A stretch of DNA of 64,000 bases from an uncultured Chloroflexia bacterium (lineage in GTDB: Bacteria; Chloroflexota; UBA6077; JACCZL01), in NCBI GenBank assembly GCA_963765765.1, contig CAVXYC010000001.1, positions 256,001 to 320,000 on the forward strand. The letters run 5' to 3'. Each line of letters begins with the position of its first letter. Positions within the stretch are counted from its first letter, which is position 1. The position numbers and the translations under genes were made by a program. This document shows, one piece after another, positions 53,072-64,000 of this stretch. A model generated the notes under the pieces. The model searched no databases and was not told where the DNA came from. It saw only the letters and a list, made by a program, of their open reading frames with translations.

Positions 53072-54285
53072 ATGGCGAGCGCCATGCGCGCTGATGGTCA
53101 CCTGACGAAGGCGTCGGTGGCGGCGGTCGTGCTCCCGGCCGCCGCCAGCCAGCTGTGGTTCGTCACGCTGCCGCCCTTCCTCCCGACGATCGCCGAGGCG
53201 ATCGGGGTGAGCACGGCGCTGGCGGGCCAGATCGTGGGCCTGCCGGTGTTGCTCGCCGCGGTGCTGATCCTGGGGGTGGGCCCGCTCATCGACGCCTACG
53301 GGCATGCGCGGGTGATGACGGTCGCCCTGGTGGCCATCGCCGTCAGCTCGCTGGGCACCGCGGTGGCCACCGGCGCCGGCGTGCTGCTCGCCGCCCGGCT
53401 GGTGGGCGCATTCGGTCGGGCCGGGGTCATCCCGGCCGCGTTCGTCGATGCCGTGGAGCGGCCCAGCCAGGAGCAGCGCCGCCACGGCACCAGCTGGGTG
53501 GTCGCGGGCGCGGCGGCGGCACCCCTCCTCGGCGTCCCGCTGCTCACGCAGGTCGGGCGCGCAGGCCGGCTGGCGTGTGGCGTTTGTCTTGATCGGCGTC
53601 CTGGCCGCGCTCGCTGCCATGCTGGCGTGGCGACAGCCTCGCGGGCATCCGTCGGCCTCGGCGCGAGCGTCCCGGCCAACGCTGCGCAGTTTCCGGCCGC
53701 TGCTGTCCCGAGCCGGCCATCACGACGGTGCTGCTCTCCTCGCTGGTGGGGAACGCCGGCCTGTGGACGGTCTCACCTACCTCGGGGTGCTCTATCAGAA
53801 CCGGCTGGGGCTTGGGCCCCAGGATGCCGGCTGGGCCCTCACCGCCTTCGGGCTCGGCCAGCTCGCCGGGTCACTGGCGGCGCGGGACCGCCGCGTCGGC
53901 CGGGCCTCGCGTCGCCTGCTGGCCGCCTGTCGTGTGGGGATCGGCGTGCTGCTGGGCCTCGCGTTCCTCATGCCCATCGGAGCGACCGGCCTGGTGGTGC
54001 TGCTCTTCGTGTGGTGGGGTGCTTGGGGGTGTGCAAGCATCCATCATGCCGCTGATCTTGAGTCGACAGCCGTCGTCGGAGACGGGGACCGTCCAATCGC
54101 TCAACTGGCTGGCGCTCACCGCCGGCATCGCCCTGGGGGCCTCGTTCGGCGGCGTCCTCCTTGCGGCCGGCGATATCCCGCTCGTGGGGTTGGGCACGCT
54201 CGGCCTCTCGTGCTTGGCTGCGACGATTCTCTTCTGGCCGCGTTCAGCGAGTCCCACCCCTGCACCACGCTGGCAGAAGTCATAG
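53072..54285 (+). CDS. MFS transporter (frameshifted)
   Basis: PFLPTIAEAIGVS, GPLIDAYG motif A variant, GWRVAF, multiple TM helices. Confidence 0.75.
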
Positions 54286-54712
54286 TTTGCTCGCGACGGC
54301 TGCCTAGCGACATGGAGAAATCTGCATCTTTACGGTCGAGACCCGGATGAGCGCCCCGGTCTGGCTCTAGTGTGCTACGCTTGTAGCAGCCGGTCTCCAC
54401 GATGGAGATAAATGGGCGTGGTTTGTTCACGCACGATGTGGCACTTTGGGTCGGCCGCCAGAGGCGTCTCACCAGGCCGTAACGCGAACTTACCTGCTCA
54501 TATTTTGTCCTAGGATTCTTTTCAGCGCCTGGGTGCGCCACACCCAAGAAGTTCCCGGGCACCAGTTACCTGAATACGCTGATTGTCTCGCCAGTGAAGC
54601 GGGGCACACGGATTGCGCTACACATGACACCCGAGCGCCGGGGCGGTGGTCGTGGTTTCCTGACCATTGACCCTTCCCACGCCGAAGCCCAGCCGGTGCC
54701 CAAAGGATTGAA

Positions 54713-54983
54713 CATGACAGAGCCACCATTGGGATCCGATCGTGCACTGCGACGTTTTCGTGTCGCTCTGGCAGCCGCCGAAGCGGCTCCATCTGCAGCG
54801 TCCGTTGCCTCGCTCAGCGAGGCGGCGCTTCTGCTGAACACCGAGCTTCGCGCTGCTTACGTGGCTGCCGGCAGTCCGTACGGCGATGACCGTGCAGGCA
54901 TGTACCGCTGGCTCCGAGAGGGCATCGGGCGACCGGACACAGGACCTGATGAGATGCAGAGCGATCGCTTCATGACGAGCTAG
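54713..54983 (+). CDS. Small hypothetical protein with AYVAAGSPYGDD..GMYRW motif
   Basis: AAAGGA RBS before the ATG; helical composition. Confidence 0.55.
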
Positions 54984-55381
54984 GTCCTACTAGCTAGGAA
55001 GGTGCCGTCCCGACCGGTTGCTACGTCGTCGCCCATAAACGATCGCCGTCTAAAATGAAGAAGCGACAAGAACCCGTTGATGGGAACCAAGCGAACTTCG
55101 CACCGGATGTCGGGCGGATTACCGCCAGCCGGTCTTCGCAGATCGCAGTCGAAGGCCCGTGCTTTACGTGTAGTCGCGCTTTACAAGCGCCACCCGATCG
55201 GGCGCACGACGACCCGGGCTGAGCTAACCTGCCGGTTCACTCTGCCTTGAAGGGGCGCGGTGCAGCGCCCATCGCGATTCGCGACGCGCAAACGTCAGGC
55301 GGCCGCGGTCCATGGCGAGGATGCAGCAGTCCCTGGATGATGTCGGAATGCGCGGTGGCTCCACCACCGCCGAGACGATGG

Positions 55382-55624
55382 TCAACGGTGCAATCCGTGC
55401 TCCATCGTCCACACCGCGATCTGTAAGCGGCTGAACAGTCCCAACGCCCGGAACATGTGCGCTATCTCGTTGGACACGGCTTCGGGCGTCAACGCGAGCC
55501 GCGCGGCAATCTCGCGGTTCGAGAGGCCCTCGGTCACGAGGGCGGCAATGTCTTCCTGGAGCGGACTAAGCACTCCTGGGCAATCGTCGCCGGAATTCGG
55601 GGGCGGATCAAGGTCGGTACGCAT
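55382..55624 (-). CDS. Solo LuxR/GerE-type HTH protein
   Basis: LSPLQEDIAALVTEGLSNREIAARLALTPEAVSNEIAHMFRALGLFSRLQIAVW; GAGGAG RBS. Confidence 0.85.
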   Translation of the reverse strand: MRTDLDPPPNSGDDCPGVLSPLQEDIAALVTEGLSNREIAARLALTPEAVSNEIAHMFRALGLFSRLQIAVWTMEHGLHR

Positions 55625-55795
55625 CGAGCCACTCCTCAGCACTGGCCGGCTGGTCTCGTCATCGGAGAACCAGCACGCACTCTCTGCGCGATGCTCCCGG
55701 TGGCAGGGCTCAGGCCCAGCAAAAACTGCCGTTCCCCAGGATAGCAGCCAGTGGGAGGAATTACCAAGGGTCTCGCTAGGAATTACCGAGCTCGG

Positions 55796-56071
55796 TCAGC
55801 CGGCAGCGTCGCGCTCGTCCCGATCCTGTCGGAGAAGCTGCCGGGCTTCCGTTCCAACGGTCCGCAGCCGCTGCTCACTGGACGGATGCGTCGGGTGCGT
55901 GCGATCCCACTCGCGGATGTCCTCGATGTCGGCGAGGACGATCCGCGCCACAAGCTCCGCTTCCATCACTGTTCCGCCGTCGAGCGTCACCGGCGGCAGC
56001 CCGTAAAAGGCGCCGCGCTGCAATCTAGCATCCAGCTCCGCGGCGAGGGCGTCTAATTCGGGCCAATCCAT
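55796..56071 (-). CDS. LuxR-associated orphan small protein, copy 2
   Basis: MDWPELDALAAELDARLQRGAFYGLPPVTLDGG..EAELVARIVLADIEDIREWD; GGAG RBS. Confidence 0.8.
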   Translation of the reverse strand: MDWPELDALAAELDARLQRGAFYGLPPVTLDGGTVMEAELVARIVLADIEDIREWDRTHPTHPSSEQRLRTVGTEARQLLRQDRDERDAAG

Positions 56072-56093
56072 CGCCAACTCCCCATTGAGTGCG

Positions 56094-56192
56094 CTACGTT
56101 TTGCGATGTGATCCGTCGGGCCGCGGTGAACGGATCACACCAGCATCGATGGTGTTCCGGCCCCAGCTCCAGTCTGCGAATCGTTAGCACCA
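56094..56192 (-). ncRNA. Candidate structured leader, variant copy
   Basis: TGGTGCT..GATTCGCAGACTG...CGGATCACATCGCAAAACGTAG homologous to the other two leaders; GGGCCG/CGGCCC stem and TGTGATCCGT/ACGGATCACA IR. Confidence 0.45.
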
Positions 56193-56570
56193 TCTCGCGA
56201 TTTAAGAGGCGCGGTGGAGGATAGTCCAGTAAGCCCGCAGGTGCGACACGTGTAATACATAACGGGTGAGTACACAGTCTGGTTGGCACAGTCTCCCTGC
56301 GTAGTGCAACGCGCAGGGCGGTTCGGATCTTCGTCGATGTCGAGCAGGTCAGTTATAGGTCGTACGGGACTTAAATGCGACGTCGCCTGCGGTGGTCACA
56401 GATCCAGCGCCCTGTATGAATGGTGCGCCCGGGGCCGAGTCGGGGGAGTCACGGCGCAACGTGTCGTCTCGGGCCCCGGGCACCACGTTAGCGGTGTAGG
56501 GGCGGACTGACTCACGGTCAGTGCGGTATCGAACACAGCGCGTCCGTCCGCTTCGACCAGGGGTCAGTGA

Positions 56571-56759
56571 TTACGATGGGTGGTCGATCGCCCACAGGGC
56601 AATCTGTACGCGGGTGATAAGTCCCAACGCCCGGAACAGGCCCACTATTTGGTCGGACACGGCTTCGGGCGTTAACGCGAGCCGCGCGGCAATCTCACGG
56701 TTCGAGAGGCCCTCGGCCACGAGCGCGGCAACGTCCGCCTGGAAAGTGTAAGCATTCAT
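56571..56759 (-). CDS. Solo LuxR/GerE-type HTH protein
   Basis: DVAALVAEGLSNREIAARLALTPEAVSDQIVGLFRALGLITRVQIALW; 1-nt indel near the start relative to the 60807 copy. Confidence 0.82.
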   Translation of the reverse strand: MNAYTFQADVAALVAEGLSNREIAARLALTPEAVSDQIVGLFRALGLITRVQIALWAIDHPS

Positions 56760-56780
56760 CGACACCATCAGACGGCAGGT

Positions 56781-57074
56781 TCAATAGATGTAGGCAGATT
56801 GTGTTGCGGCAGCGTGGCGCTCGTTCCGGCCAAGTCGCAGAAGCTGCCGAGCATGCGTTCCAACAGCTTGCAGCCATCTCTCACCGGTCGGATGCGGCCG
56901 GTTCTTACGATCCCACTCGCGGATGTGCTCAATATCGGCGAGGACGATTCGCGCCATGAGCTCCGCTTCTATAACATGTCCGCCCTCGAGCGTCACAGGC
57001 AGCCCCCGCAAGCCTCCGCGCTGTAATCGGGCTTGCAGCTTCATCGCGAGCGCGTCTAATTCCGGGCAATTCAT
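56781..57074 (-). CDS. LuxR-associated orphan small protein, copy 3
   Basis: MNCPELDALAMKLQARLQRGGLRGLPVTLEGG..EAELMARIVLADIEHIREWD. Confidence 0.8.
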   Translation of the reverse strand: MNCPELDALAMKLQARLQRGGLRGLPVTLEGGHVIEAELMARIVLADIEHIREWDRKNRPHPTGERWLQAVGTHARQLLRLGRNERHAAATQSAYIY

Positions 57075-57110
57075 TGCCAACTCCACGTGGGTGCGTCGGC
57101 CTGGTTTGAC

Positions 57111-57205
57111 TCCTACGTTGCGGTGTGCTCCGTCTGCAGGCCGCGATCAAATGTATCCAATGCTCTTCGACCTGCAGCGACAGTCTGCGAGTCGGAGCAC
57201 CACTG
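57111..57205 (-). ncRNA. Candidate structured 5' leader RNA
   Basis: P1 GTGCTCCG/CGGAGCAC, P2 CTGCAGGTCG/CGGCCTGCAG; extended -10 TG-G-TAACCT at 57219-57227. Confidence 0.55.
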
Positions 57206-57764
57206 GAATACAAATCGCAGGTTACCAAGCGAGCCGGCCGCGCGGAACATGCAGTTGTGCACTAATTCGGGCGCCCAAAGACACAAGAGACCGCCAGCAC
57301 GATGAAACCCGGCTCTCTCAGTGCTGGCGGTCTACCGTCCGAGCGCATTCTAACGGTGCACGTTCCAGAAATCGGTTAACGGCTTGACAGTCTAGATGGG
57401 GCCACATCACCGTAGCAGTGTGCCGTTGTATACATAGGGGGCTGCCGAGCCATTGCTATGCTGAGATGCCCGTGTGAGCCTCGCGGAGTCCGGGCATGCA
57501 TGGTTCCGATTCAGGTCCCATGCACTCTCCATGAGCGAACTCCGGGAGGCTCAACCAGAGAACACCGTCGCGGGGCTCGTCGGCACCACGTTGGCGGAGT
57601 GGATGTCGACTCCTACCTGAGCCGATTCCGCGAATGATCACGGCTCGGGACAGCTCTGTGCTCCTCGACGTGGTCACAAATCGCCTGCGCACGCCGAGGC
57701 ATCGGAGCGCTGCCTACGCCACTGTTCAGAAGTAGGGGGAGAGCCAGGCGATGTTCGATGTTCT

Positions 57765-57888
57765 TCGTAGCACGGGGGCTTGTCCTGTCCTGAGTTGCCC
57801 CGGCATCCGACGACGGATCCAGCCTGATTCTCCCCGTGGCCGGCGCCTATGGCGCTCCAGGCACAAGGGACAAGCCCCCGTGCTACGA
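57765..57888. repeat. GTAG-type REP doublet
   Basis: TCGTAGCACGGGGGCTTGTCC (57765-57785) and exact reverse complement (57868-57888). Confidence 0.85.
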
Positions 57889-58078
57889 CAGTCGTCCGGC
57901 GGATCGTCCCCGCAACTCTGAACACGTCCATCTGGTCGAGAAGCTTCCAACAAACGTCCGACTTCCCTCTAACTGATCTCTGATGCGAGCGTCGGTATGC
58001 TCTGGTCGAGGCCGTTTCGGATCCTCCCAGCGATCCGAAAGGCTGTCGAATCCATTCTTTGCAGAGGAGGGATTGACC

Positions 58079-58294
58079 ATGCCCCAATCATGGTCACCGA
58101 CAGTCGGCGACGAAGTACGCGTGAAATCATTTGGAGAACGTGGGCCTATCGTGCGCATCGAAGGCTCCGGTGATTCGGCCGTGTACGCGGTGAACAGCCG
58201 CAGGTATCGCTTTGTTGACGCCGACGGTCAGATCAAGAACACCGCCCTGGAGCCGAGGGAGTGCTCCATCGCCGATCTCGAGCCAATCAGCTAG
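58079..58294 (+). CDS. Small hypothetical protein with KOW/SH3-like pattern (71 aa)
   Basis: GAGGAGG RBS; VGDEVRVK...GPIVRI...YAV. Confidence 0.6.
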   Translation: MPQSWSPTVGDEVRVKSFGERGPIVRIEGSGDSAVYAVNSRRYRFVDADGQIKNTALEPRECSIADLEPIS

Positions 58295-58394
58295 ATAAAG
58301 ACAGATAAGCCCCGTATTCCCGGGGCTTATCTGGTTCCACGGTGCCCCTGCTGCAGCGCAGGGACACGGTGTCGATCGCACCGCTAACCAAACT

Positions 58395-58620
58395 GCTCAT
58401 GTCACGAAGACGGACACGTGCTGCCGGTCCTGGACGGGCACAATCAACCACGGATATGGGTCTGGTATGAAGCACATCTTCGCGCATGTCACAGCCTGGT
58501 AAGAGAAGCACGGCCCGTCCCGCCCGGACATCGGCTGACAACGACGTGTCGCCCCCGCCACTGCATCAACCCTGATGACTGGGCCGCCGTGCGCAGAGGT
58601 GACTTCTTCCGATCAATGAA
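58395..58620 (+). pseudogene. Phage-type HNH endonuclease remnant
   Basis: VTKTDTC..WTGTINHGYG...AHVTAW*EKHGP then shifted VPPGHRLTTTCRPRHCINPD; catalytic His missing, internal stop. Confidence 0.7.
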
Positions 58621-58806
58621 GCGCCCTGTTCATCGGTGTTGGTGTGATCGTTCGAGTCCATACGCATCTCTCGGGAGCATGGGACTAGACAGAGCTCGGC
58701 GACACGGGCCCAACGCATGGGTCAAGGCCTGATCGATGCGGCGGCTCCGCGCGGTATGGTCTCTGCAGGACAGCGGCATTCCTCATACACGACGCGAGGT
58801 GGTGCC

Positions 58807-59077
58807 ATGGAATGGTTGGAGGTGGACAGAGTCGCGGACCAGCTGCATCGCTTGCTCCATCGGGGAGCGTTTCGGGGACTCCCCGGAGGTGGCCGTGGAT
58901 GCGGTTCATATGATGGATGCGGAGCTGGTGGTTCGGATCACGCTGGCGGATATGGCGCACATCCGCGACTGGGATGTCGCGCATCCGCTTACGCCAATGC
59001 CCGATTCTCGCCGACGGGACTTGGCCGAGGCCGGCTATCGACTCCTGGGACTGGTGGAAGCGGTTCGGTCGCTCTGA
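58807..59077 (+). CDS. LuxR-associated orphan small protein, copy 4 (frameshift near 58885)
   Basis: MEWLEVDRVADQLHRLLHRGAFRGLP + EVAVDAVHMMDAELVVRITLADMAHIRDWD; GAGGTGG RBS. Confidence 0.75.
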
Positions 59078-59221
59078 CTGGTCCGGCCATCTGGTATCCT
59101 TCTGCACGGGCATGTTTCGCCGGCCCGCTCGTCGGGCTTGGCTTCGGGGCAACACCAGCCTCGGCAACACTTCTTTCGTCCTTGCTGACGAGACCTGCCC
59201 AGTACGCGGCAGGTAAGTGCC

Positions 59222-60022
59222 ATGCTCGGCAATTTCGACTTTCTCTCCTATTCGGACGACCGGTTGCTGGACGCGCTCGAGCGTCTGGTCGTTCTCCCAG
59301 GGTTGGAGCTGCGTCCCACGCTTGACGAGGCGTCGACGGTGGTGGCCGAGGCGGTGGACGCCGACAAGGTTGACGTCTTTTTGTACAAGGCGAATAAAGA
59401 CAGCCTGGTGGCGCTGGGCACCAGCGACACACCCATGGGACGCAAACAGCTCGCGCTCGGGCTGGACCGCTTCCCGCGCGCCAACGCCGGACCACTCTGG
59501 CGGGTGTTCGAGACGGGCGAGACGTATCGCACCGGCCACGCCGAGCAGGACCCGACCCAGCCCCGTGGGCTGATCGAGGCGCTCGGGGTGTGCAGCCAGG
59601 TGCATGTGGCCGTGGATGTGCGGGGCGAGCGGCGCGGTGTCCTGGGGGTCGTGAGCCAGCGCGAGGAGCACTTCAGCGAACGCGATCAGCGCTTTCTCAC
59701 TGCCGTGGCCGGCTGGATCGGGCTGCTCATGCACCGAGCCGAGGTGGTGGAGCAGCGCGACCGGGAGATCGACCGGCAGGCGCGGCGGGAGGCCGGCGAC
59801 GAGCTGGCCCGAATCACCCGCCGACAGCAGGAAGTCGCTGCGCTGGTGGCGGAGGGTCTGAGTAACGAGGAGATCGGCGTACGGCTCACGCTGGAGGCCG
59901 GCACGGTGGCCAATCACATGGAAAACATCCTGAAGCGGCTCGAGCTGCGGAATCGGACCAGCCTGGCGGTCTGGGCGGTGGAGCGCGGACTGTATCGGTC
60001 CGATTGGGGCGAGAACGGATGA
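59222..60022 (+). CDS. GAF-LuxR transcriptional regulator
   Basis: GAF (ADKVDVFLY..GVLGV..HFSERD) plus ITRRQQEVAALVAEGLSNEEIG..GTVANHMENILKRL. Confidence 0.9.
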   Translation: MLGNFDFLSYSDDRLLDALERLVVLPGLELRPTLDEASTVVAEAVDADKVDVFLYKANKDSLVALGTSDTPMGRKQLALGLDRFPRANAGPLWRVFETGETYRTGHAEQDPTQPRGLIEALGVCSQVHVAVDVRGERRGVLGVVSQREEHFSERDQRFLTAVAGWIGLLMHRAEVVEQRDREIDRQARREAGDELARITRRQQEVAALVAEGLSNEEIGVRLTLEAGTVANHMENILKRLELRNRTSLAVWAVERGLYRSDWGENG

Positions 60023-60109
60023 GCGCGCCCGACGACGGAAGGGCAATTGGACGACTGGATCGTGAACGGCGCGATTGGCGCTTCGACCTCACGGCGGAAG
60101 GGGTAATAG

Positions 60110-60625
60110 TTACCGAGACCGATGACATCGCACCGGATTCCTGTCGCTCGGTCCTTGGTCAAACCGACTCCCACCGAGCCGCGCCCGGCAATCCGTTGCC
60201 CAGCCCGCTGCCTGTGCTGAAACCGTCCGAAGGCGCTCGGCGTCGAGCACGGCCTGATGTTCCGCCTCGAGTCGAAGCTGGGCATCGCGCTGACTCTGCG
60301 CGAGACGGAGCTCCAAGTGCTCCTGGAACTGCACACCGTAGGCGATCATGACTTCGAGCAGGAATTGCTGACCGCATCCCTCGAGGTGGGCACGCTCGCG
60401 GGCCGATTGGCCGGCGAGCGCCCGATCGAAGCTCTCGAAGTGGAGCGCGATGATGTCCTCGGGCCCGAGTCCTCCGCGGATCAGGTGCTGACTCAGCTGC
60501 GAGACCCGGTAGAGCGCATCCTCGCTGCGCGTGGCGATGTAGCCGCGCAGGAGGTCTTCGTACGCGTCGGGGCCGAACTCCGGCTCATCAGTAGCGAGCT
60601 GTGCGGCCTGGGAATCAAAAACCAT
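60110..60625 (-). CDS. RsbU N-terminal-domain protein, apparently truncated after a coiled coil
   Basis: YEDLLRGY...EDALY..SQL...GLGPEDIIALH...FLLEVMIAYG is the RsbU_N signature; no PP2C or kinase follows. Confidence 0.75.
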   Translation of the reverse strand: MVFDSQAAQLATDEPEFGPDAYEDLLRGYIATRSEDALYRVSQLSQHLIRGGLGPEDIIALHFESFDRALAGQSARERAHLEGCGQQFLLEVMIAYGVQFQEHLELRLAQSQRDAQLRLEAEHQAVLDAERLRTVSAQAAGWATDCRARLGGSRFDQGPSDRNPVRCHRSR

Positions 60626-60806
60626 GGGAGGCTTGTTCAGTCGGACGGATGGACGGCGACGGCGCCAGGCGCGTGTCCAAGGCGGGACCGACGGATGCGC
60701 CATTGTCGCGGGCTCAGCTTTCGGCCGGGCAGATTCCTCGTGCGGAGCAGGCGCCGCACGGTCAGTCCGCTACCGAACACGGCGCGTCCGTCCGCTTCGA
60801 GCACGG

Positions 60807-60998
60807 TCAGCGGTGCGATCCATGCTCGATCGCCCACGGAGCAATCTGTAAGCGGGAGGTCACTCCCAGCGCCCGGAACAGGCTCGCTATCTCGTTGGAC
60901 ACGGCTTCGGGCGTTAACCCGAGTCGCTCGACAATCTCGCGGTTCGAGAAGCCCTCCGCCACGAGTGCGGCAACGTCCTTCTGGAGGGGTGTAACCAT
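60807..60998 (-). CDS. Solo LuxR/GerE-type HTH protein (63 aa)
   Basis: MVTPLQKDVAALVAEGFSNREIVERLGLTPEAVSNEIASLFRALGVTSRLQIAPW. Confidence 0.85.
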   Translation of the reverse strand: MVTPLQKDVAALVAEGFSNREIVERLGLTPEAVSNEIASLFRALGVTSRLQIAPWAIEHGSHR

Positions 60999-61010
60999 TC
61001 ATCGACACTA

Positions 61011-61322
61011 TCAGACAGCAGGTTCAATGGATATCGGGTGAGATTGGGCCCTGGCACCGTCACACTCGTCCCGGTCCATTTGCAGGAGCTGCTGGGCATC
61101 CGTTTCGACAGCTCGCAGTCGTCTCTTCCCGGAGAGATGCGTCGGGCGCGTCGGGTACCACTCGCAGAGATCCTCGATGTCGGCGAGGACAAGCCGCGCC
61201 ACGAGCTCCGCTTCCATGACCTTCCCGCCGTCGAGCGTCACAGGCGACAGCCCGCGAAACGCTCCGCGCTGCAATCTGGCCTGCAGCTCCACAGCGAGCG
61301 CGTCCAATTCGGGGCAATCCAT
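61011..61322 (-). CDS. LuxR-associated orphan small protein, copy 5
   Basis: MDCPELDALAVELQARLQRGAFRGLSPVTLDGG..EAELVARLVLADIEDLCEW; GGAGG RBS. Confidence 0.8.
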   Translation of the reverse strand: MDCPELDALAVELQARLQRGAFRGLSPVTLDGGKVMEAELVARLVLADIEDLCEWYPTRPTHLSGKRRLRAVETDAQQLLQMDRDECDGARAQSHPISIEPAV

Positions 61323-61374
61323 CGCCACCTCCACATGGGTGCGTCGGGCCCACAATCATGCCGCCTGCTTTCGA

Positions 61375-61476
61375 TCCTACGTTGCGGTGTGCTCCGTGGT
61401 GGGTCGGCAGACCACGATTGAACGTATCCGATCGTCTTCGGCCCACCACGCCAGTCCGCGAGTCGGAGCACCACTG
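61375..61476 (-). ncRNA. Candidate structured 5' leader RNA
   Basis: P1 GTGCTCCG/CGGAGCAC, P2 CGTGGTGGGCCG/CGACCCACCACG; extended -10 TG-A-TATCTT at 61480-61488. Confidence 0.55.
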
Positions 61477-61553
61477 CCCAAGATATCAAGCGACCGGGGC
61501 GCGCGAACCCATAGATATGCACAAATTGGGGTACGGAAAGCGACTTACGCAGT

Positions 61554-61661
61554 GTGGAAGGATTTCGGACAATCAGGTTACGAGGGACCTGATACGGCGT
61601 TCGAGGACGGCCATTTCATATCAGGGCACCCGACCGGGCAGCGAAATTGGTCTTGGTCAAG
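61554..61661. repeat. ~110-bp non-coding direct repeat, copy 1 (copy 2 at 63027-63136)
   Basis: GTGGAAGG[A/C]TTTCGGACAAT..GGTTACGA ... AGCGA[A/C]ATTGGTCTTGG shared by both copies. Confidence 0.75.
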
Positions 61662-62155
61662 GCGGACCCGACTCCGTGCCTGGGCGGGGCGCTGGTGAGC
61701 AGGTAGAGCACTGCCGCGCCAAACGGCCGCCGCGTGCTCAGGATTAGCCGAAGGGAAAGCCGGAAAGGCGAAGTGAGGCACGCCCGCCCCGGCTTTCCCG
61801 AGCGCCGCTGGGGGGTGGGTCCACCTCCCACGGTACTTAGAGATTACCGAATGGGGACCGCCCCGGTGGGATTTATCGGGTCTCGGGTCCGTCACGACGC
61901 CCATACCGTGGACGCCTCGCAGACTTGGTTGCTCGAATCGCTTCTGGCGAACGGAAGCGGTCGCCTTGGACGCCGGTCCTGCCGCCGCCTGCGTCGGCAG
62001 TCAAGCGGCCCCGAGCACCACGGCGTGGATGCCGATGCCAGGGGCCGTCTAAGTTCGGCTGCGGAGCTCGGGGTTGACGTGGGCGGGCCGCCTGGTGACT
62101 GCCCGCTGCGTGATCGGAATCTCCGCCGCGGCACGTGGGAAATACGCGGGTAGGG

Positions 62156-62206
62156 GAAGGCCACACCGATCGCTCCTGAGGTTCAGGAGCGATCGGTGTG
62201 GCCTTC
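62156..62206. terminator. 24-bp perfect hairpin downstream of 62235..62741
   Basis: GAAGGCCACACCGATCGCTCCTGA-GGT-TCAGGAGCGATCGGTGTGGCCTTC. Confidence 0.65.
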
Positions 62207-62234
62207 GGTACGGTCGTGGCGAATGCTGGAGGAC

Positions 62235-62741
62235 TTACGGGTCGAGGATTCCTACCAGCGCGCAGAGCAGGTTGCCCAGCAGGCTGCCCGGGCCCGCTAT
62301 CGCGTAGATGTCGATCTCGATCGGCCCAATATCAACCACCAGCCCCAGGAGGTTGAGGACGAGCCCGTCGTCCGGTATGAAGAGGCTGAGGATGGGACAC
62401 GACCCCTCCGGTGCTACGGTGGCTTCAACGTTGTTGAACTTCTCCGAGACTTTCTTTTCTTGCCCGTTCTGCTTCGCGGTACCCTCGACCTCGCCGCTGA
62501 TGAGCAGCTTATTGCTGCCCTTCTTCGCCTTGACGTCGGTGATCTCGATCTGGCCGTCGAAGGTGCCGACCTTCTTGCCGGACTTGTCCTTGAGGTCCGC
62601 CCCCTTCACGTCCTTCTTGATCGTCTTCTCCGCGGCCGGAGCGGCAGCATCGGCGGTTTGCGGTGGGAGTAGGAGTCCGGGGACTATGAGCGCGCCCACG
62701 AGGGCTGCAGTCAGAGAAAACATAGTCAGACGCAGTTTCAC
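62235..62741 (-). CDS. Secreted uncharacterised protein with C-P-I-L...LNLLGL...GNLLC motif
   Basis: Signal peptide, Lys-rich beta region, two Cys in a hydrophobic C-terminal block; GAGGT RBS. Confidence 0.75.
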   Translation of the reverse strand: MKLRLTMFSLTAALVGALIVPGLLLPPQTADAAAPAAEKTIKKDVKGADLKDKSGKKVGTFDGQIEITDVKAKKGSNKLLISGEVEGTAKQNGQEKKVSEKFNNVEATVAPEGSCPILSLFIPDDGLVLNLLGLVVDIGPIEIDIYAIAGPGSLLGNLLCALVGILDP

Positions 62742-63026
62742 GTCACTACCTCACTTGGTCCATGAATCGAATGGTTATGAATCGAACGGAGATCCTGCTG
62801 AAGAGCAGACTCTACGAAGGCAAAGAATTCGATAGAGCCGCCGCACCGAGCGCAGGAAGCGCGAATGCGGTTGTAAGAGTGGCAACTAAGGCCAATGCTA
62901 TTAACCGTAAGCGAATTTACCGACCATCGTGAACTCTCCTCCTTGGGAATCGGATCTGGGACTCGATCTGTTCGTCCCATCAACATTCACGCTACGTGGC
63001 CCGATGCTGTCCAAACCTTAAGAAGA

Positions 63027-63136
63027 GTGGAAGGCTTTCGGACAATTTGGTTACGAAAGGCTTAAGAGCGGGTCCAAGGAGATGGTTAAATGGACCTCAG
63101 GCTCTCCCCGACTAGCGACATTGGTCTTGGAGCAAG
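63027..63136. repeat. ~110-bp non-coding direct repeat, copy 2
   Basis: See 61554-61661. Confidence 0.75.
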
Positions 63137-63317
63137 TCCAAGACGCAGCGTGGCATGAGGAATGCTTATTCGCTTCTTCACGAGCATGAGGTCATTCTTT
63201 AGCGGTCAAGGGCATCTCCAGGCTTCCCGAGCGTCAGTGTTGAATGCCGCTTCGGTGCAAAGCGTCGGCTACGGAGGCCGCAATCCGGCGACCTTGCTAC
63301 CGCGGGGAGGGCCAACG

Positions 63318-64000
63318 ATGACGGCCACGTCGGAGCTGCGTGCAACCATTCTCCTGGTGGAAGATGATCCGGCCCTCACGATGCTCTTAATCGATCGGCT
63401 CGGGGCCGAAGGGTACAGCGTTCACAAGGCCGCGAGTGCTGCACAAGCCGTAGAGCTCACTGCTCAGATTTCCCCCGACCTCATTCTCCTTGACCTCTCG
63501 CTCCCCGACCAACATGGGCTGGTCTTGTGTGCTGAGCTCAAGGAGAAACACGAGGCTCCGATCATCATTTGCAGTGGAACGAAACACGAGCATGAGGCGA
63601 TTCTCGCGTTGAAACTTGGAGCGGATGACTTCGTTGCCAAACCCTTCTCGGTCGATGAGCTGGCTGCCCGGATCGAAGTCGTCTTGCGTCGGACAAGGCC
63701 TCCCACCGGTCCGGAATTGGACGGTCTCGAGGACATTGAGCGCGTCGGCGAGCTCGTGATCGATCGGGCCGGATACGTGATCACTGTGTGCGACGAGCCG
63801 CTCAAGCTCACCCCGACGGAGTACCGGTTGCTGTGCACACTGGCTCACCGGCCCGACCAGGTGCTCTCCCGCCAGGAGCTGACCGAGGCACTCTGGGGTT
63901 ACTACGATGTAGGCGTGAGCCGGTCACTTGACGTGCACATCCGCCGCCTGCGTGCGAAGCTGAAGGCCTGCGCAGGGGACGCCCCGGACATTGTTACGGT
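63318..64000 (+). CDS. OmpR/PhoB family response regulator (runs off the window end)
   Basis: GGGAGG RBS; ILLVEDD, LILLDLSLPD, GADDFVAKPF, LTPTEYRLL, SLDVHIRRLR. Confidence 0.93.
   Translation, partial: MTATSELRATILLVEDDPALTMLLIDRLGAEGYSVHKAASAAQAVELTAQISPDLILLDLSLPDQHGLVLCAELKEKHEAPIIICSGTKHEHEAILALKLGADDFVAKPFSVDELAARIEVVLRRTRPPTGPELDGLEDIERVGELVIDRAGYVITVCDEPLKLTPTEYRLLCTLAHRPDQVLSRQELTEALWGYYDVGVSRSLDVHIRRLRAKLKACAGDAPDIVT

Follow-up and report, generated by a model that had tools for sequence, protein, structure and literature searches.

The window, a stretch of 64,000 nt from the genome of a soil bacterium, carries three tandem two-gene cassettes on its minus strand. The first gene of each cassette encodes a protein of 91-103 aa (approximately 95 aa) without a Pfam family (P0001, P0003 and P0005), and the second gene encodes a protein of 63-86 aa that is barely more than a GerE/LuxR helix-turn-helix (HTH) (P0002, P0004 and P0006; Pfam GerE, E = 6e-6 to 8e-9). 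The genes are as follows.

61011..61322, minus strand: copy A gene 1, P0001, 103 aa, no Pfam family
60807..60998, minus strand: copy A gene 2, P0002, 63-aa GerE/LuxR HTH-only protein (Pfam GerE, E = 8.3e-9)
56781..57074, minus strand: copy B gene 1, P0003, 97 aa, no Pfam family, 61% identity to P0001
56571..56768, minus strand: copy B gene 2, P0004, 65-aa GerE/LuxR-type HTH-only protein (Pfam GerE, E = 6e-6)
55796..56071, minus strand: copy C gene 1, P0005, 91 aa, 70% identity to P0001
55382..55642, minus strand: copy C gene 2, P0006, GerE/LuxR HTH, 86 aa as translated (Pfam GerE, E = 9.2e-9)

For the small protein encoded by the first gene, we found no Pfam family, no match in the ESM Atlas and no match in a PDB fold search at E ≤ 0.001; the AlphaFold2 model of P0001 is a three-helix protein (mean pLDDT 72.7). 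The family is expanded in its own genome (25 matches at E ≤ 1), no match was obtained at E ≤ 1e-8 in 60 relatives, and the 26 matches in a large protein collection are, besides those of the window itself, all metagenomic. The cassette family is young and lineage-specific, and it has undergone tandem duplication in this genome.

A further paralog of the small protein (58736-59077, plus strand) is located directly upstream of a regulator with GAF and GerE domains (59222-60022, plus strand; Pfam), and the pairing of the small protein with a LuxR-type HTH therefore recurs. At L016 (G000 contig 14: 322924-323076) and L017 (contig 32), longer ORFs (446 and 206 aa, respectively, as open-frame figures) begin with the same N-terminal module of approximately 55 residues, which indicates that the module is also a domain of larger proteins; the part downstream of the module may be PAS-like, judging from our own reading of the translation. 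Approximately 100 nt downstream of cassette A, a 197-aa ORF (60110-60703, minus strand) encodes an RsbU_N domain (Pfam, E = 1.2e-15), and this ORF and the cassette may form one transcription unit.

Leader anatomy and promoter-like signals

Aligned with one another, the stretches 5' of the first genes in the three cassettes have a mean column identity of 69%. A preliminary description of this DNA had proposed that they constitute a conserved leader in which an inner stem changes its sequence and still pairs, and the motifs quoted there, the outer stem (P1), the inner inverted repeats and GAAGA/GGATAC are all present on the minus strand. Leaders A and B have in common an 8-bp P1, an inner stem (H2), GAAGA and GGATAC, which are inside the hairpin in both copies, and a –10-like TGnTAnnnT. 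Indels of 10, 7 and 16 nt between A and B leave no common reading frame, as had been stated. The features of the leaders are listed below, each on the minus strand.

61320-61488, minus strand: leader A, full copy
61480..61488, minus strand: copy A extended –10-like TGATATCTT, which fits TGnTAnnnT and is homologous to the copy B site
61464..61471, minus strand: copy A P1 5' arm GTGCTCCG, inverted repeat, 8/8 complementary
61439..61448, minus strand: copy A H2 5' arm TGGTGGGCCG, homologous to the copy B arm
61405..61414, minus strand: copy A ancestral H2 3' arm TGGTCTGCCG, 10/10 pairs with the 5' arm, five of them G-U
61397..61403, minus strand: copy A 7-nt insertion CCCACCA, a gap in the other nine alignment rows
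61389..61396, minus strand: copy A P1 3' arm CGGAGCAC, inverted repeat
61320..61388, minus strand: copy A proximal leader, with Shine-Dalgarno GGAGG at 61328-61332 and ATG at 61320-61322
57288..57333, minus strand: terminator-like hairpin upstream of copy B, a perfect 13-bp stem followed by a T-rich tail
57072-57227, minus strand: leader B, full copy
57219..57227, minus strand: copy B extended –10-like TGGTAACCT, which fits TGnTAnnnT, with the hexamer TAACCT at 57219-57224
57193..57200, minus strand: copy B P1 5' arm GTGCTCCG, inverted repeat
57168..57177, minus strand: copy B inner stem (H2) 5' arm CTGCAGGTCG, inverted repeat
57134..57143, minus strand: copy B inner stem (H2) 3' arm CGGCCTGCAG, inverted repeat
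57125..57132, minus strand: copy B P1 3' arm CGGAGCAC, inverted repeat
57072..57124, minus strand: copy B proximal leader, with a linker, a local hairpin, Shine-Dalgarno GGAG at 57081-57084 and ATG at 57072-57074
56069-56200, minus strand: leader C, a diverged relative (covariance-model score 87.3 bits)

The inner arms of copy B form nine Watson-Crick pairs out of 10 and one G-U pair. The inner stem originally assigned to copy A has its arms at 61439-61450 and 61395-61406, with 11/12 positions complementary. Copy C, which had been presented as a third copy, retains TCGCAGACTG and GGGCCG/CGGCCC, but its strongest repeats are located elsewhere (56107-56116/56130-56139 and 56148-56154/56188-56194) and its P1 has two mismatches.

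The extended –10 sites reported for two copies fit TGnTAnnnT and occupy homologous positions in A and B. TAnnnT hexamers occur at homologous positions as TATCTT (A), TAACCT (B and the metagenome contig L039), TATTCT (L042) and TATCCT (L044). Because a sigma-70 consensus promoter scan found no site in the leader region, we treat the promoter as putative. The 3' arm and tail of the terminator-like hairpin are also present upstream in L039; given the position of this hairpin immediately before copy B, a separate promoter for the cassette is expected ahead of P1, at approximately 57287 to 57201, in the conserved block that ends with the TAnnnT hexamer. The spacing between the –10-like hexamer and P1 is variable (approximately 8, 18 and 33 nt), and, counted from the hexamer, the expected beginning of P1 is approximately +2 for A, +12 for B and for group II, and +27 for L040 and L043. 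A 5'-terminal stabiliser stem-loop would start only a few nucleotides from the 5' end of its transcript.

A terminator scan returned two sites (58302-58333 and 59405-59424), neither of them in a leader. The GC-rich hairpin and U run of an intrinsic terminator or attenuator were not found in the leader, where P1 is followed by ACCGCAACG with no U-tract. A long perfect hairpin at 62154-62208, after the upstream gene, gave weak matches to microRNA families in Rfam and is most likely of the terminator type. The sequence is present in 13 DNA metagenome runs and in no RNA run among the runs listed.

Leader A also contains, at 61372-61380, the 9-mer GTAGGATCG, shared with the Vibrio fischeri lux box printed in PMC4444344. 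A lux-box operator is a palindrome of approximately 20 bp upstream of the –10, and the surroundings of the 9-mer are not palindromic and lie downstream of the putative start. Since it is restricted to copy A and lacks a palindromic context, this is probably a coincidence.

Distribution of the leader

We searched positions 54000-64000 on both strands against Rfam 15 with cmscan at E ≤ 10 and obtained seven weak matches (14-26 bits, compared with gathering scores of 50-197), none of which overlapped a leader; this agrees with the earlier impression that the element corresponds to no Rfam motif. In the 6.5-Mb genome of the bacterium, BLAST with leader B gave, apart from the query, a single match below E = 0.1, which was A. 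A covariance model, R1, found four full copies in the 6.5 Mb, namely A, B, C and D (contig 10); its further matches were F and L051, which cover the proximal 55-60 nt only, and a marginal match at paralog E.

All leader copies found with BLAST and the covariance model are located upstream of family genes or derived genes. Downstream of the F and L051 leaders, chimeric genes join the proximal leader and the first codons (MDSSEL...) to an unrelated Cys-rich ORF of approximately 75 aa, and the hairpin part is deleted. L037 (contig 15: 324225-324302) and L051 (contig 23: 475006-475098) are two copies of a chimeric gene.

Beyond this genome, R1 yielded only weak matches in seven of 100 relatives (E = 0.002-0.06); all were inspected and judged to be noise, being inside ORFs or at the Shine-Dalgarno-like end only. 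Comparison of the DNA of leader A with 60 relatives gave nothing beyond one weak 37-nt match. In the genome_contigs collection, a protein-pattern scan produced 201 matches, none of which was confirmed, and a DNA pattern scan produced none; the plasmid and phage collections (BLAST) and the viral-contig collection (pattern) likewise had no match. Contigs of four sequencing runs aligned to 55300-61700 consisted of short fragments with no usable leader variants. A single metagenome scan identified eight contigs, and 6/8 carry a hairpin-type leader (that of L038 is incomplete at its 5' end). As for the others, L041 is an intact relative cassette with a shorter leader lacking the hairpin, and L045 is too short to classify. 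The hairpin is missing in L041, in the own-genome paralog E and in the chimeric derivatives F and L051.

The leader is thus not a dispersed repeat, and was found only in its own genome and in 6/8 related soil-metagenome contigs. It resembles REP, ERIC and MITE elements in being an imperfectly palindromic intergenic sequence present in several copies. Unlike these elements, however, it is limited to four full copies in the 6.5-Mb genome, all of them preceding the same paralogous gene pair, and the membership in a known REP/MITE family that the preliminary description had named as a refutation was not observed. Among the top-ranked papers of a literature search on LuxR solo or GerE leaders with a riboswitch, we found nothing relevant.

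Retention of pairing in P1 and H2

We used an alignment (A4) of 10 rows, comprising A, B, C, D and six metagenome leaders. Hairpin-region identity between copies ranged from 0.52 to 0.89, compared with 0.47-0.85 at the four-fold degenerate sites of the downstream gene. Because leader identity tracks these sites, conservation alone is no sign of function. The numbers of parsimony changes per column were 1.50 in the arms and 1.39 in the other columns. None of the 10 copies had a sense-strand folding energy better than that of its dinucleotide shuffles (z = –1.9 to +1.15), and the consensus energy computed by RNAalifold on the alignment was just –2.16 kcal/mol. The 150-nt leaders of 13 family paralogs were not better than shuffles either, with the exception of B (z = –2.35), and the idea that the leaders of the wider gene family are structured in general was accordingly rejected. 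A candidate pseudoknot, in which the apical UUCGAUC would pair with the downstream GAUCGAA, was also rejected, as it was no better than shuffles in 9/10 copies.

These equal rates, null z-scores and synonymous-like identities are what would be expected if the leaders were young, undiverged paralogous promoter and leader DNA whose inverted repeats are decaying mutational by-products, for example of template switches, with no RNA function. The dispensability of the hairpin in L041, E, F and L051 also favors this explanation, which is the main rival to a functional hairpin and which we consider a real possibility, although on balance a doubtful one.

Copy A provides a further argument of the same kind. 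Its insertion CCCACCA (61397-61403) matches TGGTGGG of the adjacent 5' arm exactly when reverse-complemented, and creates a near-perfect 12-bp alternative stem. Template switching is reported to generate a hairpin and apparent compensation in one step (PMC8794818), and the copy A insertion carries the signature expected of such a mutation; its stem was probably gained in one step. The preliminary description had interpreted the inner stems of A and B as compensatory changes. Because the 3' arm that it used in copy A derives from an insertion absent in the other 9/9 rows, this part is not column-by-column compensation; the older homologous arms of A still pair, however, forming 10/10 pairs in A and in B although 8/20 H2 positions differ between the two copies. 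Template switching concerns how a stem may arise by mutation rather than what it does; it accounts for the stem of copy A and leaves the retention of the older H2 through G-U pairs unexplained. In L042, L044 and L038, H2 has three to four mismatches and another register is in use: a 7-nt deletion between GACT repeats joins TCG to GCG, and TCGGCG paired with YGCCGA replaces H2. This replacement indicates that the hairpin is plastic rather than fixed.

We then considered P1 and H2 together. In A4, standard pairs occupied 77.5% of 173 cells, compared with 33-41% when the partners were slid by one to three columns. A lack of significant covariation in a larger alignment had been named beforehand as a refutation. 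In the 10 rows, 5/10 pairs of H2 changed on both sides, whereas 0/8 pairs of P1 did so, and P1 displayed one-sided erosion in L039, L040, L044, C and D. For a tree-aware null, the parsimony changes of each column were re-placed independently on a FastTree phylogeny, with the transition share of 0.50 taken from the non-arm columns (the share in the arms was 0.62). On the sense strand, 134 paired cells were observed, compared with 110-124 under the null (P = 0.0003-0.05), or 110-118 at a transition share of 0.50 (P = 0.0003-0.008). P1 alone was consistent with neutral decay (P = 0.14-0.26 at a transition share of 0.50, 0.14-0.5 overall), as the neutral explanation predicts. H2 alone gave P = 0.0007-0.008 at a transition share of 0.50 and P = 0.004-0.027 at 0.67, and these P-values are nominal, given that the stem was picked post hoc, that the 10 rows are related and that gene conversion between paralogs may inflate the test. 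The H2 result was P = 0.012 when A was dropped, 0.08 when B and L039 were dropped, and 0.03 when C and D were dropped. The retention of H2 pairs above the tree-aware null, on the sense strand only, and the absence of any lost pair between A and B argue against a purely neutral origin. These results amount to a real but modest signal of RNA-level constraint on H2. A model-fitted alignment of 15 rows (A5), in which 0/500 shuffles reached the observed value, was discounted because its extra double changes in P1 come from L041, L051 and a refitted D, in which the hairpin region is non-homologous or model-fitted.

It had been held that G-U placement does not settle which strand folds. On this point our results differ: G-U cells outnumber A-C cells (27 vs 7), and the retention of pairs (sense P = 0.001-0.008, antisense P = 0.15-0.35) favors the sense strand. 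The opposite possibility is that a plus-strand, antisense RNA is functional, or that the element is a mobile repeat of the REP/MITE type. The plus strand does fold better than shuffles in A (z = –4.1) and in B (z = –2.6 to –3.0), but the plus-strand z-score was not significant in the other eight copies and the antisense reading of pair retention was not significant (P = 0.09-0.35). Given also the confinement of the copies to sites upstream of the cassette and the empty plasmid, phage and viral searches, both variants appear extremely improbable.

Possible roles of the leader hairpin

The element could be regarded as the promoter and the 5' untranslated leader, of approximately 135-160 nt, of the cassette family. 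Transcription would start a few nucleotides after the conserved TAnnnT hexamer, and the sense mRNA would fold as a long irregular hairpin, with the 8-bp P1 outside and the 10-bp H2 inside, in which H2 is the part likely to be under RNA-level constraint. The most likely role of such a hairpin would be to influence, in cis, the translation or the stability of the mRNA.

The Shine-Dalgarno sequence is located outside both P1 and H2. GUGCUCCGACUC, the 5' strand with the best conservation, can pair with two segments, namely the P1 3' arm and GAGKUGG, the latter overlapping the Shine-Dalgarno sequence; RNAalifold likewise proposed the pairing CCGACUC:GAGKUGG. The cost of this pairing relative to the minimum-energy fold ranges from 0 to 11 kcal/mol: it is part of that fold in L040 (0 kcal/mol) and requires 2.3 kcal/mol in L044, these being two copies with an eroded P1, and 6.6-11 kcal/mol in the remaining six copies tested. 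It shows no covariation. GGAG is also partly enclosed by a local hairpin of its own in B, L044, C, L043 and L040; the partners are not the same from copy to copy, and the pairing probabilities reach 1.0. In copy B, for example, GCCGAC...GUUGGC surrounds the Shine-Dalgarno GGAG, whose first and last G have pairing probabilities of 0.92 and 0.95. The paralogy, the pairings, the lack of a known family and the excess of H2 pairs kept on the sense strand are direct results; where transcription starts, how the leader folds in vivo and a Shine-Dalgarno competition, in which the P1 3' arm and GAGKUGG would be alternative partners of GUGCUCCGACUC, are what we infer from the sequence features. Since the 5' strand has these two alternative partners, a closed hairpin would leave the ribosome site freer.

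Cis-acting stem-loops in 5' untranslated regions control mRNA stability or ribosome access in several systems, such as the ompA 5' hairpin, the Bacillus aprE and ermC leaders, and cases of competition between Shine-Dalgarno and anti-Shine-Dalgarno sequences. As in these systems, a hairpin lies between the putative start and the ribosome site, and its conserved 5' strand could pair with the distal arm or with the Shine-Dalgarno region. Unlike these stem-loops, the candidate is a long hairpin (approximately 70-80 nt) with an irregular shape and a plastic register, its start is deduced from sequence, and its distance from the –10-like hexamer varies.

The same region could instead be a DNA operator near the promoter, at which the GerE-type HTH of the cassette or another transcription factor would act, giving autoregulation through repression or activation, the hairpin potential being incidental. 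Every cassette encodes a DNA-binding HTH protein, and AACNNAGG-like direct repeats recur in the linker, approximately 11-13 nt apart. The motif GTGCAY/RTGCAC (e.g. approximately 61519-61524 and 57257-57262 of the window; in the own genome, contig 20: 696910 and contig 15: 655420) occurs ≤300 nt upstream of 10/24 family members, which as paralogs are not independent, compared with 15% of random 300-nt genome windows; two paralogs contain the palindrome GTGCAT-N4-ATGCAC, and the motif may be a common operator. However, the P1 arms are 54-67 nt apart, unlike dimer operators, and the G-U-type changes that keep H2 would not keep a DNA palindrome. We regard an operator role of the conserved blocks as improbable.

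With respect to orphan riboswitch candidates and Rfam cis-regulatory motifs, the leader is similar in being a conserved non-coding upstream block with pairing potential and some pair-preserving variation. It differs from them in having no Rfam match, in its occurrence in one genome and a few soil-metagenome contigs only, in the lack of covariation in P1 and in being missing from some members of the gene family. A ligand-binding riboswitch or an RNA thermometer would fit the position in a leader, the conserved apical block GGAUACRUUYGAUCG and the alternative pairings of the 5' strand. The expression platform of a riboswitch would be a terminator or a sequestration of the Shine-Dalgarno sequence coupled to the aptamer, and a thermometer of the ROSE or fourU type would enclose that sequence and the start codon in a weak hairpin that can melt. 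On the other hand, the covariance model gave only noise-level matches in 100 relatives, where an aptamer would be conserved with covariation across taxa; the interior is rich in indels and has no multi-helix junction, the Shine-Dalgarno sequence is outside P1 and H2, metabolic gene context is absent and some cassettes lack the element. Judging from the sequences, these two possibilities are very unlikely.

The general proposal of a cis-regulatory RNA, made in the preliminary description, can therefore be retained in part. The excess of sense-strand pairs in H2 speaks for it, whereas the neutral behavior of P1, the low consensus energy and the null z-scores do not, and its riboswitch and thermometer variants receive no specific support. 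Taken together, the comparisons point to a lineage-specific cis-acting hairpin in the 5' untranslated region that would tune translation, through ribosome access, or mRNA stability; we consider this reading plausible but unproven, and hold it with slightly less than even confidence. A more elaborate version, in which each paralog has its own RNA switch, with GUGCUCCGACUC toggling between P1/H2 and segments flanking the Shine-Dalgarno sequence and with a cassette-encoded protein or a physical signal setting the balance, seems unlikely.

The finding opens no long-standing question, and the label of riboswitch is not warranted on present evidence. If the switch did exist, the cassettes would be mutually insulated, self-regulating modules of small regulators that diversify by hairpin indels and template-switch mutations. 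If the hairpin itself is real, it would represent a young, lineage-restricted cis-acting leader in the course of helix remodelling, through indels, shifts of register and an insertion that probably arose by template switching, and thus a small natural example of how the structure of mRNA leaders evolves in a set of paralogs. Such a leader would moreover point to an uncharacterised pair of regulators, consisting of a small three-helix protein, with its 25 matches in this genome, and a GerE-type HTH.
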